From Escherichia coli (lineage in GTDB: Bacteria; Pseudomonadota; Gammaproteobacteria; Enterobacterales; Enterobacteriaceae): a stretch of DNA of 64,000 bases. The position numbers were made by a program, and so were the translations under genes. Below are positions 55,250-63,194 of the stretch, piece after piece. The stretch's first letter is position 1. Each line of letters begins with the position of its first letter. The stretch lies in NCBI RefSeq assembly GCF_003790525.1, contig NZ_CP033635.1; one strand, written 5' to 3'. The notes beneath the pieces were generated by a model. That model was not told the origin of the DNA. It was given only the letters and a program-made list of their open reading frames with translations, and did no database searches.

Positions 55250-55432
55250 CTATGAAGTTTTCAACTTCCTGCGCTTAGTGATGCGTACAAACGACTCAAG
55301 CGTACAAAAACAAGCCCCACACTCAATATTACTGCACTGGTAATACGTTTTGTAGATGTTTTGTTCGTGCTCTTCCAACGAACGACTACGGGTTCGGGCT
55401 GAAGCGCCACAGGCCGGGCAAGGGAAAGACAT
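55250..55432 (-). CDS. Ogr/Delta-family zinc-finger late-gene activator, 60 aa
   Basis: CPACGASARTRSRS...YQCSNIECGACFCTLES matches the P2 Ogr / P4 Delta C-X2-C-X22-C-X4-C signature. Confidence 0.7.
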   Translation of the reverse strand: MSFPCPACGASARTRSRSLEEHEQNIYKTYYQCSNIECGACFCTLESFVRITKRRKLKTS

Positions 55433-56046
55433 ATCACGCTCCTCTTACTGGTGTGAAATTTGACCTATTATATCTCCTGCCGCCCCCTCTGGCTGTATCA
55501 AATAAACCCGCAGCAGTCGCCGCGTATTACGGACGGACGCACCGTTCCCATGCTCACTCGTCACATTCCCCGTATCAGTTCTCTCTTACCGTAAGAACGG
55601 CTCTGGCTGGCGATAAAACTAACCCGGTCGGGCATTCCCGCAGTCTTTAGAGAAAATGTAATTTACCCCCTGAAACGTGGGCTGTTCCCCCGTCACCTGC
55701 GCGCGAAAAACTCACCGTTTTTTGTGCACGCACGAAATCGCCCTCCGGGTGCGCCAGTACTGGGCCGGATGGGCAAAAAGTTACTCTAAAAAATTGTGCA
55801 AATTTGTGCACTTTTGTGCAGATGAACAATAGCGTGAAAAAGAGTGCTTTTGAGAGATTTTTTATGGCAACTGCGCCGCGTGTATTACGTTTTTTACCAT
55901 CCCCGCCGCGCATGTACATACTTCATTTTTCTGCCAGACAACAGGGCAACTCCCCGTGACTGACAGCCCCAAAAAATCAATGATTGATGTTGCATTTTTG
56001 TTAAAGGTTAGACCAGTTGTTTTAGGGCTCTGCCTCATAATCCGGT

Positions 56047-56360
56047 GGGGGGTGCGCAAAGCGGTTACAACGGTTACAACACTCAAAAACACCACTTAAC
56101 AGCATGATTTTAATGGATATTGTTTGTAACCGCTTTGCGGTTACACTGCGGTTACAACGGTTACAGGTTTCAAAAAGCACTTTATTATCAATCAATTAAA
56201 AACTTAACCTGTAACCGCCTGTAACCTAACAAAACGGTTACATGTAACCGCGTTGTAACCGCTTTTATAACTCATCGGACCAGTTATAATATATTGATAT
56301 ATAATACAAAAATAAGTAATTTTAAATTTGTAACCGTTGTAACCGCTTTGCGCACCCCCC
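56047..56360. repeat. Heptamer-repeat cluster (GGTTACA / TGTAACC) bounded by 33-bp perfect inverted repeats, candidate replication origin
   Basis: 56047..56079 ggggggtgcgcaaagcggttacaacggttacaa is the exact reverse complement of 56328..56360; about 14 heptamer copies in both orientations lie between. Confidence 0.6.
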
Positions 56361-56611
56361 CCCAAACTTTAGCGCGACCCTTTAAAATGTTAATTAAACT
56401 CACTTACTCTGTATCTCTCTCGTTAACTCTCTGTTATTGAAATGTATCTCTCCACTGTTTCACTCTTTCTGATAATCAGGGGAAGCAAAAAATTGATGGC
56501 GGCACTACTGCAATATGGCCACCATTGCATTGCTGTTACCGTTGGTTCTGGCCAACAAAAAAGGTCAGCGGGAAACTGACCTCTTTTGCTGTGAATGCGG
56601 CGTTCTGCGGG

Positions 56612-57616
56612 TTACTCTGCTGGCTCTTTTTCTTCGGTGATCACTATGTTGGCTACCGGGTTAAATCTCATGGCATCTGCCAGATAATCCGGTGCAAAAT
56701 GTGCGTATGCCATAGTCTGCTGAATTGTCGCATGCCCAAGGATTTTTTGTAGCGCAAGAATGTTGCCACCGTTCATCACAAAGTGACTGGCGAATGTATG
56801 CCGCAATACATGCGCAGCCTGCCCCCTCGGTAAATCGGGTTTTATTTTTTTTAATGCCCGGCAAAACTCTCTGTACTTCACATCAAACAGTCGCCCGGTT
56901 TCTTTTGTTTTTACGGCATCGCATATTTCCTGCGACACAGGCACCGTTCTTTTTCTACCGTTTTTGGTTTCCAGAAACGTTATTCTGTTATGAACTATTT
57001 GCTCTCCATGCAATCTGCTGGCCTCACTCCAGCGGGCTCCGGTACAAAGACACAAGAGCGCAACCCTTCGTTGATCTCCATTCAGCCCGTCAAGCAACAA
57101 TGTGACCTCGTTTTTTGATAAAAAGGCCATTTCCCGCTGCTTTACATAAAGAACAGGAATACCACGAACCGGATGCTCTGCATCCCACAAACCGATCTTT
57201 TTCAGGGCTGTAAACATCCCCGATAATCTGTTCATGTATCTGTTTGCTGAGGACGGCTTTAATCCTTCCGCAATTTTCTGCGATCGCCATGCAATGATTT
57301 TTAATTTGTTGAGTTCTGCCGCAAACATGTCAGCTCCAAGCTCATTAATAATTTTGCCAAGTTGCTGTTTATCCGTGTTTGCCTTTCGCCTGTGCTGACC
57401 GTGATAGACCCACCACAATTCCAGTAAATCGCTAAGCGTTCTCCGGTCGCGATAGCCCTGTATAAACTCGCGCTTTTCGGCGTTCGCTATGATGTACCGT
57501 TCAGTTGCTGTAGCTATCGATTTTTTGTCAAATATTCTTCTGATGCGCTTCCCTTTACGTCCGCATGGCCTGATATCGAGCAGCCACCGCCCATCATGCA
57601 TCTTTCTGATCGGCAT
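56612..57616 (-). CDS. Tyrosine recombinase / phage-type integrase, 334 aa from Met MPIRK
   Basis: Box I TGARWSEASRL and box II HVLRHTFASH...LGH...Y motifs; strong AGGAGG ribosome-binding site 8 bp upstream; start 2 bp after the primase stop. Confidence 0.75.
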   Translation of the reverse strand: MPIRKMHDGRWLLDIRPCGRKGKRIRRIFDKKSIATATERYIIANAEKREFIQGYRDRRTLSDLLELWWVYHGQHRRKANTDKQQLGKIINELGADMFAAELNKLKIIAWRSQKIAEGLKPSSANRYMNRLSGMFTALKKIGLWDAEHPVRGIPVLYVKQREMAFLSKNEVTLLLDGLNGDQRRVALLCLCTGARWSEASRLHGEQIVHNRITFLETKNGRKRTVPVSQEICDAVKTKETGRLFDVKYREFCRALKKIKPDLPRGQAAHVLRHTFASHFVMNGGNILALQKILGHATIQQTMAYAHFAPDYLADAMRFNPVANIVITEEKEPAE

Positions 57617-57618
57617 GT

Positions 57619-60312
57619 TTAACTCCCCTCCTTGTAACTGAATATCCGGCATTTCAGTACTTCCGGCTCTCTGGCCTCGGCGACCCCTCTTCCGGCGTTT
57701 GCCTGTCTGGAGACCTCACTACGAATGGTTTTGCGGCCTGTCAAAGGTCGGGAACGTCCGGCTGCGAGCAACTCAATCATTTCGCGGTCAGTTCGGATCT
57801 CCACGCGGTGAATAGCGGCAGCCTGTGCCAGTTGCGGAATACTGATAGCAATCCCCTCGCGGCATCCCTTGCCGTAGTGGTTTACACCGTATTTTGTTAT
57901 GCCGTCCAGATAGTCGAACGCCTCCCAGAACGCTATTACTTCCGGCAAGTCATCCGTTACCGCTTTAACTTGTTCCGCTGCCATTCGTTCCAGTTCCTGG
58001 CATGTGGCATTAAGCCATTCATCCGGGATATCAATAACGCATTTCAGCGCCCTGACCAGCGCAATAAGTTGCGCGTGATTTTTGGCAATACGGGGATGGA
58101 GAATATTTTCGCAACCGCAAAGGCGGGTCGTTTCAGGCTCTGAGAGCGCCAGAAACATTTCCATAATTGCCCGTTCACGGCTGACTGCCCGATGAATAAA
58201 CCCTGACACCTTCTCAACGGGGTAGAGTTCCAGTCGTCTCGCCGCCAGCCGGGTATCAGACGAGTGGCGCTTTTTATCGGTATATATGCGAATCAGTCGC
58301 TCAATAATTGCAAGTGAGGCGTTTACCCTGGCATTCTGTGCAATCACGATAGCGCCCTTAAAATCCGGGTCATAGGTGTTGTTATTGTTGGTCTTAACGC
58401 CACGAACGCCGATACCGCCGCCGTTATAGAGGCTTTTCAGGTTATCGAAGTCAAACGCACCTCTTTTTTGCGCATTGCCTCCCCTGTCTGCTTCAATCAG
58501 AACAACAGGTAATCCGGCGACCTGTCCAAAGGTGCGCTTCCAGCCCGCCTCTGATCCTTTGGTTGGATCAACGCCTTCATAGTTGTCACGACCGCACAAC
58601 CGCCAGCAAAAATCAATCAATGTTGATTTACCCGTTCCGGGCTCCCCGGTGACTTCAAGGAAGGGGAAGGATTCTTCTTTATCCCGGATTTGTTCGCTGA
58701 ACAGGGAGCCCAACCAGAAAGCCAGGGTAATAATTCCTTTTTCACCAAAAGCCAGCCAGAGATCTTCCACCCAGGACTCTGTAAACTCATCCGGTTTTTT
58801 GTAGTTAATCTGTAATGTGGGTTTTTCGCTTAATGGTTTTGCGTTTATGCCATCAATTTCAAAATAATCTTCGTCATTGATTTCATAAGTTTTTCCCTTG
58901 TAAACAGCAATATCATTAAACAGCCATGCCCCAATCGCCTTGTTGTATCCGATAAAATCCTGACCAATAACCTCTTTTATTGCGGGAAGGTCATTTTTTA
59001 TTAATGCGTCAAGGTGCGCAGTTGTTCCGGTATAAATGCCGCCTTTTGCCACATGCAACAGGCGTTTTTTAAATTCAGATGCGGATGTCAATTGTCCTGA
59101 TGTAAAGGTGTTTTTCACCGTAGCACCATCCGGGAACGTAACACGGAAGTAATACCATGCTTCATCCGTGTCATTATTTCTAATGTAATAAAGCGGCGCT
59201 GGGTTACAGTTTGCGATTTCTTTTACTGCGCCAGATTCCTTAAGTGCAATTTTGCGCGCTTCATCCTCATCAACACTTCTCTCATTCTTGGCACGCTCTA
59301 CAGCTTTCATATAGCGCTCAATGTCCAGTTTGAACCAGAAAACACGGTTATCAAAAGTAAAATGAAATTCCTTCCGCTCACGAAAGGAAAATATTATTAG
59401 CGCCTTATCTCTCGGAGATTTCGCCAGCAATAAATCACCGTAATGACGGTATCTTTTCACATCATGGCCACGCAGCTTTCCGGCGATGTGTAAATCATTC
59501 CAGTCGCGTTTATTGTTGTTTTTACCTGGCAACGCCGCTGCCGTTCTCCAGCCGTCTTCGGCGCTGCGTTCTGCATGTTTTTTCGCGTAACGCTCACCCG
59601 CACGCCCGTTATCCAGCGCCCACACAATAACCGGACGGGGATTATCCCCGCACAGCTTCGCCAGCTCTTCCAGCGCCTTATCAGGGTAGTTCACGGCAGA
59701 CATGACAGAAACGGCCGCAATGCCATTCTGGTTAAGGCTGATGGCATCAAAGATGCCCTCACAAATCCAGATTTCTTTGGCCTTGCTTAAATCTGCTCCC
59801 GGATAAGCCCACCACAACCCCTTGTAGCTGCCGGAAAAATTCGCCTTGCGCGCGAAGCGTCCCGGTCGGTCTATGATGCGCTCCCACCACACGCCGTCAG
59901 CCAGCGTAAAACGCACAGTAGCGGCCTGTTCGCCGTTTTCCTTGTCCTGGTATCGCTCCTGAGTAAATGCGCCCTTCAGTGGCCCCACAGCAATATTGCG
60001 CGCCTCCTGAAGATAAGCTGCCACCGCTGCATATGGCTCGTCTTTCGTGCTGATATAACGATCTGACCATGATGAAAACACATCCGGGTAAAGTTCTTTG
60101 GTCAGCAGGTCTGTACCGCATTTATTTTCGCGCCCACAGTGTACGATGTACGGCCTTTCAAGGCTGGTAAACAACTCTTTCTTTCCACATTGCGGACAAA
60201 CACCATACCGGAGGTAGTTATTTTCTTCTTTGAAGTTGTAATCACGGATAAGACGGTTAATAATCTCTTTTCTGATGTCAGATTTCATATATAAAACTCC
60301 ACCCCACTGCAC
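57619..60312 (-). CDS. Primase-helicase replication protein (P4 alpha-like), 897 aa
   Basis: N-terminal zinc-binding CPQCG...HCG..C, Toprim-like CEGIFDAISL region and Walker A TGEPGTGKST. Confidence 0.75.
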   Translation of the reverse strand: MQWGGVLYMKSDIRKEIINRLIRDYNFKEENNYLRYGVCPQCGKKELFTSLERPYIVHCGRENKCGTDLLTKELYPDVFSSWSDRYISTKDEPYAAVAAYLQEARNIAVGPLKGAFTQERYQDKENGEQAATVRFTLADGVWWERIIDRPGRFARKANFSGSYKGLWWAYPGADLSKAKEIWICEGIFDAISLNQNGIAAVSVMSAVNYPDKALEELAKLCGDNPRPVIVWALDNGRAGERYAKKHAERSAEDGWRTAAALPGKNNNKRDWNDLHIAGKLRGHDVKRYRHYGDLLLAKSPRDKALIIFSFRERKEFHFTFDNRVFWFKLDIERYMKAVERAKNERSVDEDEARKIALKESGAVKEIANCNPAPLYYIRNNDTDEAWYYFRVTFPDGATVKNTFTSGQLTSASEFKKRLLHVAKGGIYTGTTAHLDALIKNDLPAIKEVIGQDFIGYNKAIGAWLFNDIAVYKGKTYEINDEDYFEIDGINAKPLSEKPTLQINYKKPDEFTESWVEDLWLAFGEKGIITLAFWLGSLFSEQIRDKEESFPFLEVTGEPGTGKSTLIDFCWRLCGRDNYEGVDPTKGSEAGWKRTFGQVAGLPVVLIEADRGGNAQKRGAFDFDNLKSLYNGGGIGVRGVKTNNNNTYDPDFKGAIVIAQNARVNASLAIIERLIRIYTDKKRHSSDTRLAARRLELYPVEKVSGFIHRAVSRERAIMEMFLALSEPETTRLCGCENILHPRIAKNHAQLIALVRALKCVIDIPDEWLNATCQELERMAAEQVKAVTDDLPEVIAFWEAFDYLDGITKYGVNHYGKGCREGIAISIPQLAQAAAIHRVEIRTDREMIELLAAGRSRPLTGRKTIRSEVSRQANAGRGVAEAREPEVLKCRIFSYKEGS

Positions 60313-61281: not shown

Positions 61282-61719
61282 TTAAACATGGCACGCCTCC
61301 CGGACACGGATACGGGCAACAAAGACCAGACGGGATGCCGGAAGCAGGGCGCGCGCTTCGCGCTCACTGGCAGCGGTAACGGTATGAAGGCGGATATTTT
61401 TACCGTGGCACTGCATAAAGCGCCAGATAAAATCAGGGCGTGTTGATATAGCCATTTTGGCGGCTCCTTGATTAAGTTTACGGAGTCTCGCCAGCACGCT
61501 GTCAAACATGGTGGCGGGACGTAACAGGGTTGACAGACTGGCAATCAAGGAACCAGCGAGCGCAAAGGCTCCCCCATTACGCCCCGCCATAATACGGGGT
61601 AGGGTGGAATTACGGGCACAAAAAAACCGCATTACGGAAATATAGCGGCTACCCGCTTGATTGTTCAGGCTGTCAAACCCGGCACCCGCTTTATGAGGTG
61701 CGGGCAAACGATACGCCAT
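61282..61719 (-). CDS. Hypothetical protein, ~145 aa from Met MAYRLPAP
   Basis: ORF in the same-strand array between alpA and the primase gene; start codon uncertain. Confidence 0.3.
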   Translation of the reverse strand: MAYRLPAPHKAGAGFDSLNNQAGSRYISVMRFFCARNSTLPRIMAGRNGGAFALAGSLIASLSTLLRPATMFDSVLARLRKLNQGAAKMAISTRPDFIWRFMQCHGKNIRLHTVTAASEREARALLPASRLVFVARIRVREACHV

Positions 61720-62362: not shown

Positions 62363-62584
62363 TTAAGCCTGAAAACGTTGTTGTTTTCTTTCTTCTATCC
62401 AGTCGATAATTTCCTCTTCAACCCATGCAACCGCGCGAGGGCCTATTTTTATTGGTTTGGGGAATATATCAGATTTTATATCTTCGTAAATTCGAGCTCT
62501 TGATCTCCCTGTGATTTCAATGACTCTGGGGAGTCTTATTAATTTTTGAATCCGCCTTTCGCTGGTCTGTGAGTATGCTGACAT
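62363..62584 (-). CDS. alpA: AlpA-family prophage transcriptional regulator, 73 aa
   Basis: IRLPRVIEITGRSRARIYEDIKSDIFPKPIKIGPRAVAWVEEEIIDWI matches the AlpA/MerR-like excisionase-regulator signature. Confidence 0.8.
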   Translation of the reverse strand: MSAYSQTSERRIQKLIRLPRVIEITGRSRARIYEDIKSDIFPKPIKIGPRAVAWVEEEIIDWIEERKQQRFQA

Positions 62585-63194
62585 ATTGGCCTCCTGTATA
62601 TGCTGACATTTTACGTTAGCTCACAGCGGGAGCATGTAAGATCTCGCGGTCGTCTGCGGGACGAGAAAAATCATAAACAACGAAAAGCGGATTTGTAAAT
62701 CAGGTCGATTTTCAGGCGGGGTTGACATGGACAGTGAGATTTGTTCCATGTGTGCAATATACATTTTAGGACCACTTTAAGCCACTTTAAACCGCCAGAA
62801 AGCGACAAAGAATAACAAGTTAGTGCCAGAAAGGTTTGCTGACTTACCCTTTTAGGTACCAGAAAAAGCCCTTTCAGGTCGGTGTAATGCTTGTGAACGC
62901 TGAAATAGTGGTTTCTGAAAACAAAAAAAGAATTGAAAATGTGATAAATATCACAAAATAATATCGATAAAATAGTTTGATTTTTTTGTTTTTATTAAAA
63001 GCACTGGTTAATTGTAAAAAATTAATTATAAATCAAATGGATATATCTGTTTTTTTAGGGTAAAAATCACTAGGTGCTTTTAGCAGTATCTTATTCTATT
63101 GATTTTAAAAGATAAAAAAATCGGCGTGTCCACATATTGTCCACGCCTTGAGTTTAATTCAGCCGCTTGGGATAGTTTAGTTTGTTGAGTTGAT

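Follow-up and report, generated by a model that had tools for sequence, protein, structure and literature searches.

A P2-type integrase gene coupled to the primase gene of a putative phage satellite in Escherichia coli, and its possible action in trans on helper phages

The 64,000-nucleotide stretch of Escherichia coli DNA analyzed here (to be referred to as the window) contains an island that extends from about 51.95 kb to beyond 64 kb and which, to judge from its gene content, is a compact 12.7-kb satellite of P2-like phages, related to the phage-inducible chromosomal islands (PICIs) and the P4-like satellites. The subject of this report is a tyrosine recombinase gene (int) inside this island, located immediately after a primase-helicase gene. 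The features that define the region are as follows.

57619..60312, minus strand: primase-helicase of the phiCTX/ev239 type of P2-like phages, with a zinc motif, Toprim domains and a Walker A motif
57623..57633, minus strand: ribosome-binding site of the recombinase gene, AAGGAGGGGAG, within the final primase codons
56612..57616, minus strand: P2-type heterobivalent tyrosine integrase, 'W' allele, with Int_N and Phage_integrase domains and without an attachment site of its own
56684..57616, minus strand: allele-specific cassette, codons 1 to about 311 of int, the sole divergent block between satellites
56612..56683, minus strand: satellite-specific 3' end of int, encoding the tail ...ADAMRFNPVANIVITEEKEPAE, in place of the phage tail that overlaps the attP P-arm
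56553..56591, minus strand: terminator after int, a hairpin (AGGTCAG-N7-CTGACCT) followed by a T-run
61507..61714, minus strand: C4 antisense RNA (74.6 bits) with isrK-type (50.6 bits)/a1b1-type targets, within an Icd-like open reading frame (ORF)

The primase-integrase junction

The primase ORF (60312..57619, minus strand) has 897 aa when counted from a GTG codon. Its RefSeq homologues have 889 aa, which matches an ATG at 60288, and this is probably the true start. The protein has a CxxC...C zinc motif, Toprim_2/Toprim_3 domains and the Walker A sequence GEPGTGKST. It matches phrog_1139 from end to end (E=2e-297) and is 41-51% identical to the primases of the P2-like phages phiCTX, RSY1 and ev239; it is thus a primase of the Toprim_2 type, not of the Pox_D5 type. 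No similarity was found between this primase and the replication proteins of Chuche-like phages, and a replication protein in common with those phages was rejected for this reason.

On the minus strand, the primase stop codon (TAA, 57621-57619) is followed by two nucleotides (AC) and then by the ATG of int (57616-57614). An AGGAGG is present at 57632-57627, and its GGAG lies 6 nt ahead of this ATG. The original prediction, made from the letters of the window, had described an 897-aa primase-helicase with zinc finger, Toprim and Walker A, and a recombinase that starts 2 nt past the primase stop with AGGAGG embedded in the last primase codons. Motif and domain matches confirm the former, and the junction is arranged as described. 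The recombinase ORF (57616..56612, minus strand) has 334 aa. A longer, 346-aa product from an in-frame ATG at 57652 was rejected, as homology to phage integrases opens at the methionine of 57616.

Among complete E. coli genomes, the primase is present in 69 of 5426 and the primase-int junction in 64 of 5426. In all inspected members of the family, from E. coli, Yersinia and Salmonella, the stop and the start are separated by a gap of 2 nt or 4 nt, or overlap as ATGA. This conservation across alleles and genera argues that the juxtaposition is not due to chance. The homologous primase is followed by other genes, not by int, in ev239 and in prophages of Providencia and Salmonella, which makes the primase-int coupling specific to the satellites. 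No promoter-like site was found ahead of int on the same strand. With no promoter of its own, a terminator on its 3' side and the C4/isrK module upstream of the primase-int operon, int would be expressed together with the replicative cycle of the satellite, behind an RNA immunity of the C4/CI type.

The recombinase has good matches to the Pfam families Phage_integrase (PF00589, E=7e-19) and Int_N (PF24624, E=1.5e-23). Its scores against the XerC, XerD and XerA models (72-79 bits) do not pass the cut-offs (220-335 bits), and those against integron models are far under theirs. By tblastn against phages, integrases of P2-like phages (Peduoviridae) are about 50% identical to it, and the Int of phage Chuche is 82% identical over residues 1-321. 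Of the affiliations that could be expected for the 334-aa protein, that with prophage integrases is therefore the one that holds, not that with Xer or integron recombinases. The catalytic residues R195, K218, H269, R272, H295 and Y304 (the R-K-H-R-H-Y set) are invariant in 9 sequences. Inside an allele class, the ratio of nonsynonymous to synonymous substitution rates (dN/dS) is 0.05-0.17, and the ORF is intact in 63 of the 64 junction-bearing E. coli genomes, as far as inspected. By these measures, the recombinase is a complete integrase of the P2 type that has kept all its catalytic residues and is subject to purifying selection.

Allele exchange, insertion sites and the search for a cognate site

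A comparison of whole islands finds the satellites 94-98% identical throughout, with the int ORF as the single divergent block. The last ~23 codons of int and all the DNA downstream are again common to the satellites at the nucleotide level. Four allele classes of int are present in E. coli satellites, W (28 genomes, including the window), T1 (7 genomes), T6 (about 22 genomes) and T8, and these are 47-59% identical to one another. The nearest phage integrase is that of Chuche for the W allele (82%), of P88 for T1 (77%) and of 569R5 for T6 (87%), and the T8 allele has no phage relative above 57%. In this variation the satellite alleles parallel the integrase types found among P2-like phages.

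The C-terminus has the form YLADAM(R/K)FNPxA... in all satellite alleles, including those of Yersinia and Salmonella. The corresponding phage tail is YLQDAxxLNPLKGG...VH.V.T, and its codons hold the P-arm repeats of attP. A search of a protein database with a 42-aa query from the tail, carried out to count alleles, returned fragments only.

The exchange is best seen in Salmonella, where a satellite Int (P0148) is 93% identical at the protein level to the Int (P0146) of a P2-like prophage located at pdxB. The two genes are 90.8% identical in DNA exactly from the ATG to nt 936 (about codon 312), and their flanks are unrelated, which points to a near-recent capture of a phage int gene. The satellite locus of Salmonella GCA_011187575.1 (L028, 6107-9990) contains a P4 alpha-type primase (D5_N/Pox_D5) and a P2-type integrase with the satellite-type tail, with a 71-aa ORF and a gap between the two. 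This integrase is 93% identical to the Int of the pdxB prophage (L029). Since the P0148 satellite has an alpha-type primase, the integrase goes with the satellite lifestyle and not with one replicase.

The positions of the satellites in the chromosome were compared with their integrases. The features needed here are the following.

63195..64000 and beyond, minus strand: terminal integrase of the IntS/P4 type, cut by the window end
51949..51963, no strand: left attachment core of the satellite, ATGGTGTCCCTGCAG (argW core)
56044..56363, no strand: putative origin, with 13 GGTTACA in both orientations, an A+T-rich center and 36-nt terminal inverted repeats

All inspected E. coli satellites are located at argW or hpt|gcd, with a different terminal integrase at each of the two sites. 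The Yersinia satellites are also at argW/yfdC or hpt|gcd, and those of Salmonella are at a third site, beside alcohol-dehydrogenase genes. No satellite was found at pdxB among those inspected. One internal allele is found at both argW and hpt|gcd, and differing internal alleles are found at one and the same site. The internal allele is therefore independent of the site, which excludes the internal recombinase as the integrase of the island itself. The sequence evidence assigns that role, for the argW site, to the terminal IntS-type integrase. Both parts of what had been expected here, a second, P4-type integrase gene at the island edge (63195 to beyond 64000) and an internal recombinase that is not the island's integrase, are borne out.

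Arm sites of P2-type integrases are direct repeats of tgTGGaCa (PMC3448106). In Chuche, such repeats are located on both sides of the core. No TGTCCAC-type arm repeats, nor relaxed forms of them, were found near the internal int. The island has a single pair of them, at 63127/63138 (63126-63145, GTGTCCAC-ATAT-TGTCCAC, with 11-nt spacing), about 50 nt 3' of the terminal integrase gene and beside a long A+T-rich stretch. This pair is kept with the argW module in E. coli, in Yersinia and in a Salmonella satellite that has no internal int, and it is missing from the satellites at hpt|gcd. It was rejected as the target of the internal Int, as it tracks the argW integrase module and not the internal int gene. 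The pair also differs from the published IntS arm motif, and is a candidate binding site for the Int of a helper phage.

The Chuche-type core, AAAATCCTTGTTGATGAAAA, was derived from a lysogen as the overlap of attL and attR at the start of pdxB. Nothing within 3 mismatches of it is present in W-type satellites, and the matches at 5-6 mismatches are noise. The attR DNA of 569R5 has no attP-like match in a T6 satellite, and the core of the Salmonella prophage was not found in the L028 satellite. No direct repeats bracket the internal int. Thus, the two pairs of arm repeats and the core that would make up a cognate attP were not found beside it, and neither attachment or resolution sites near the heptamer cluster nor flanking repeats of a nested element, both of which had been suggested as places to look, turned up. 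The integrase genes of Chuche, ev239 and the Providencia and Salmonella prophages, on the other hand, are in the canonical order attP-int-C|cox. The closest homologues of the internal Int are indeed canonical P2-like prophage integrases, but the gene has neither an adjacent attachment site nor a second prophage around it.

The heptamer GGTTACA occurs in 18 copies in the window, compared with 6.4 expected, and 13 of the 18 are in 56044-56363. The 36-nt inverted repeats flank a 248-bp segment located 250 bp downstream of int. The same heptamers follow int in the satellites of Yersinia and Salmonella, and in a P2-like prophage of Providencia that has no int at this position they come directly after the primase, which assigns the cluster to the primase as its putative origin. 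The segment between the inverted repeats is in one orientation in 11 of 11 loci, and W and T1 satellites have the origin sequence in common despite their 47% identical alleles. The heptamers were rejected as sites for Int or as an invertible switch, in view of the constant orientation and of their presence beside a primase without int.

A possible action on helper phages, and alternatives

The reading that we favor, tentatively, is that the internal gene encodes a captured integrase of the helper type, which works in trans at the attachment sites of a helper phage and most likely supplies Int for excision of the helper prophage. The body of a P2-type integrase, with its arm-binding, core-binding and catalytic domains, would have been captured without attP and would have become a fixed part of the satellite replication operon, as its final cistron, translationally coupled and placed between the primase and the origin. 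Integration and excision of the satellite itself would be carried out by the terminal IntS-type integrase and not by the internal Int. The satellite has neither arm nor core sites for the latter, which would therefore act in trans, its targets being the att sites of a P2-like phage or prophage that serves as helper and has a matching integrase type. With the onset of the satellite's replicative cycle, Int would be supplied and, together with the helper's own Cox, would allow a derepressed helper prophage to excise. In Bertani's split-operon model, a P2 prophage is said to be poorly excised after derepression, with int not being expressed from the prophage. We infer both the target (the helper att sites) and the direction (excision).

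The association with helper prophages was assessed with chimeric queries (a satellite segment joined to a phage int block) against E. coli genomes, and places were counted per genome. In the 569R5 count, each int locus gives two places, due to an opposite-strand self-match. The counts are as follows.

P88-type prophage int: 4 of 7 T1 genomes; about 1 of 57 other satellite genomes; about 0.5% of all genomes
569R5-type prophage int: 8 of 22 T6 genomes; 2 of 38 other satellite genomes; about 6% of all genomes
Chuche-type prophage int: 7 of 28 W genomes; about 7 of 32 non-W satellite genomes; about 6% of all genomes

The T1 and T6 alleles co-occur with the matching prophage type. For the satellite as such, the enrichment of P2-like prophages in genomes that carry it is indirect evidence that a helper is required for induction and packaging.

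A separate observation concerns E. coli 08_3323, which has a complete Chuche-type P2-like prophage between flk and pdxB (L014, 1233-37678) as well as a W-type satellite at hpt|gcd (L005). The two are a candidate natural helper-satellite pair.

Several points weigh against an action of this kind. The co-occurrence counts are based on places per record, with no correction for clonality. Chuche-type prophages are enriched in satellite genomes, but are not specific to the W allele, and the majority of satellite genomes are without a matching prophage. The W allele is 79-82% identical to the nearest phage integrase with synonymous sites saturated, so that the two need not have the same specificity. 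In a sister Salmonella satellite, whose primase is 55% identical, no integrase gene follows the primase, and the function is therefore accessory. The sharing of alleles could in part reflect gene conversion from co-resident phages. P4 exploits P2 prophages that have not excised, so that with an Ogr/Delta activator excision is not obviously needed. Finally, contact of the satellite Int with helper DNA is itself something that we infer.

The alternative closest to this reading keeps the same target and reverses the direction. Int would interfere with the helper at its att sites by returning helper genomes to the chromosome or joining them as attP x attP multimers, and helper DNA would remain unpackaged while the late proteins of the helper are still made. 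The cassette, the capture in Salmonella and the co-occurrence are consistent with this as well, and the island has its own capsid protein and an Ogr/Delta activator, which are typical of satellites that divert helper assembly. The Cox protein of P2, made in the lytic cycle, blocks integrative recombination, however. We consider such interference unlikely.

Equally unlikely is a role as multimer resolvase, one of the functions named by the original prediction. The recombinase would be co-expressed with the primase and would resolve satellite dimers to monomer circles at a site near the origin, as Cre does at lox and ResD at rfsF. P2-type packaging favors monomeric circles, and the gene is located between the primase and the origin-like heptamers and is translationally coupled to the former. 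On the other hand, the W and T1 proteins are only 47% identical, yet the other island DNA, including the whole origin region, is 94-96% identical, and no inverted-repeat core or other site changes along with the allele. As a heterobivalent integrase that binds arm sites, the protein is not a simple recombinase of the Xer/Cre type, and the heptamers accompany the primase where int is missing. Resolution of satellite multimers is possible only with a hidden or allele-independent site.

It is improbable that the gene encodes a secondary integrase, by which the satellite would integrate at the attB sites used by P2-like phages. The enzyme is complete and is close kin of integrases that target pdxB and other sites, but every inspected satellite is at the site of its terminal integrase, none is at pdxB, and the satellite is without attP arms or core.

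More doubtful still is a functionless passenger, kept phage-like by gene conversion from co-resident P2-like prophages. Both edges of the cassette lie where int genes are conserved, at their 5' and 3' ends, so that homologous exchange is easy there, and the gene can be lost, as in one E. coli satellite with a deletion of the 3' half of int and the origin and in the sister lineage without the gene. The strong purifying selection (dN/dS of 0.05-0.17), the invariant catalytic residues and the intact ORF in 63 of 64 genomes argue against it, as does the translational coupling, which survives independent allele replacements.

The least probable alternative is that the gene belongs to a nested or tandem second element, or is the invertase of the heptamer segment, both of which had also been proposed in view of the letters of the window: apart from the second integrase gene within the island and the 36-nt inverted repeat around the 248-bp segment nearby, nothing favors them, as there are no bracketing direct repeats and no attP, in three genera (E. 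coli, Yersinia and Salmonella) the 12.7-kb element has the gene as a fixed part, the segment points the same way in all of the 11 loci, its heptamers belong to the primase and follow it in Providencia without int, and the 334-aa protein has an arm-binding domain, in contrast to the ~200-aa invertases of the FimB/FimE type.

The preferred reading, that the captured integrase acts on the helper in trans, can be extended to the family as a whole. More tentatively than for the window itself, we suggest that P2-dependent satellites keep an attachment-site-less helper integrase, with allele exchange tracking the helper type, in order to control excision or integration of the helper in trans.

The satellite island, its surroundings and known systems

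Island DNA nearly identical to that of the window occurs in E. coli chromosomes. In strain HNSQ2209, the 12.7-kb island is located between dsdC and tRNA-Arg (argW). Its genes are, in order, the terminal integrase, an AlpA-like regulator, an Icd-like ORF with small ORFs, the Toprim primase and the tyrosine recombinase, followed by an Ogr/Delta zinc finger, a 236-aa ORF, a P2-family major capsid protein and MazEF. The other features of the island in the window are as follows.

62363..62584, minus strand: AlpA-like excisionase/regulator (PF05930 in the Yersinia homologue)
55250..55432, minus strand: zinc-finger activator of P2 late genes, Ogr/Delta type
52820..54091, minus strand: satellite-encoded P2-family major capsid protein, 423 aa, with an N-terminal extension of ~120 aa ahead of the capsid domain

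The left core of the satellite can be compared with the argW core of KplE1, CTGCAGGGGACACCAT (PMC2951348). By its RNA matches, the C4/isrK module is of the type of P4 CI and P1 c4-icd, and would govern the early operon of the satellite. The genes int, alpA and pri are co-oriented and the origin is downstream of pri. Gram-negative PICIs likewise have ori downstream of pri, and a catalogue of 'hpt PICIs' exists (PMC10111431). The island has Delta/Ogr and AlpA, together with small ORFs without family matches. Psu and Sid were not recognized among the island proteins in general family scans, in which no search was aimed at Psu/Sid profiles. A 99-aa ORF upstream of the primase has no match in Pfam and no similarity to 'Derepression', a protein of a related satellite.

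The 236-aa ORF ahead of the capsid gene (region 52820-54801, minus strand) has no family match and is a candidate scaffold. Three other loci (L007, L011 and L015) have instead a 350-aa capsid gene and a 290-aa ORF, between alpA and icd. A MazE/MazF (PemK) toxin-antitoxin pair (52184-52776, plus strand) is located at the left end of the satellite, where family members elsewhere have Hok/Gef or different cargo. At 55790-55820, in the 5' third of a 90-aa ORF (55647-55919), AAATTTGTGC (TGCACAAAAGTGCACAAATTTGCACAA on the minus strand) occurs in three tandem copies, which are a candidate operator. In E. coli K_EC180 (L025, 1851-2550), a deletion fuses a truncated int (208 aa) to the ogr/Delta gene and has removed the origin cluster; this arrangement marks the locus as a decayed copy of the satellite.

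Between dsdC and the left end of the satellite there is a locus unrelated to it (40109-50932). It has two FimB/FimE-like tyrosine DNA invertases (40109-40678, minus strand, and 41427-42056, plus strand), a LuxR-type regulator (42374-42994) and a 2637-aa AIDA-type autotransporter (43019-50932), and is presumably similar to the phase-variable ipuA/ipuB-ipuR-upaE locus of uropathogenic E. coli.

The internal Int resembles the integrases of P2-like phages (Peduoviridae) in its arm-binding N-terminus, its Int_N and catalytic domains and, depending on the allele, an identity of 77-93%. It differs from them in the lack of an attP, in a satellite-specific tail in place of the phage C-terminal tail, and in the coupling of its gene to a primase gene, where the phage genes are preceded by that of the C repressor. 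Moreover, it does not set the integration site of its element.

A parallel is also found in the multimer-resolution recombinases of replicons (Cre/lox of P1, ResD/rfsF of F and XerCD/cer), tyrosine recombinases whose genes lie next to an origin and are expressed along with replication genes. These systems have a fixed cognate site in the replicon; in the satellites, alleles of 47-59% identity are swapped with the surroundings unchanged, and no site was found.

With Gram-negative PICIs and P4-like satellites the island shares the terminal integrase, AlpA, a unidirectional early operon that ends in the primase, an origin downstream of it, a captured P2-family capsid gene, an Ogr/Delta activator and an immunity RNA of the C4/CI type. 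A second, helper-type integrase between pri and ori is unreported in the members described. A survey of P4-like elements noted rare integrases beside alpha and ascribed them to neighboring elements (PMC8628076). In the literature searched, we did not find a description of an internal, attP-less and allele-swapped helper-type integrase between pri and ori in satellites. The gene family and the satellite type are already known.

There is a practical consequence for annotation, as delimitation of islands by their integrases, and satellite finders, will split such elements wrongly or call them tandem or nested. The deep polymorphism at one gene in near-identical elements is also a clean and testable system for helper specificity.

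Satellites are known to interact with their helpers through anti-repressors, late-gene activators, redirection of capsid assembly and interference with packaging. If the integrase acts on the helper as proposed here, control of the helper's integration state would join these interactions. The satellite would then alter the chromosomal state of its helper and not just transcription and capsid assembly, and this would offer one answer as to how satellites handle P2-like prophages that excise poorly after derepression.

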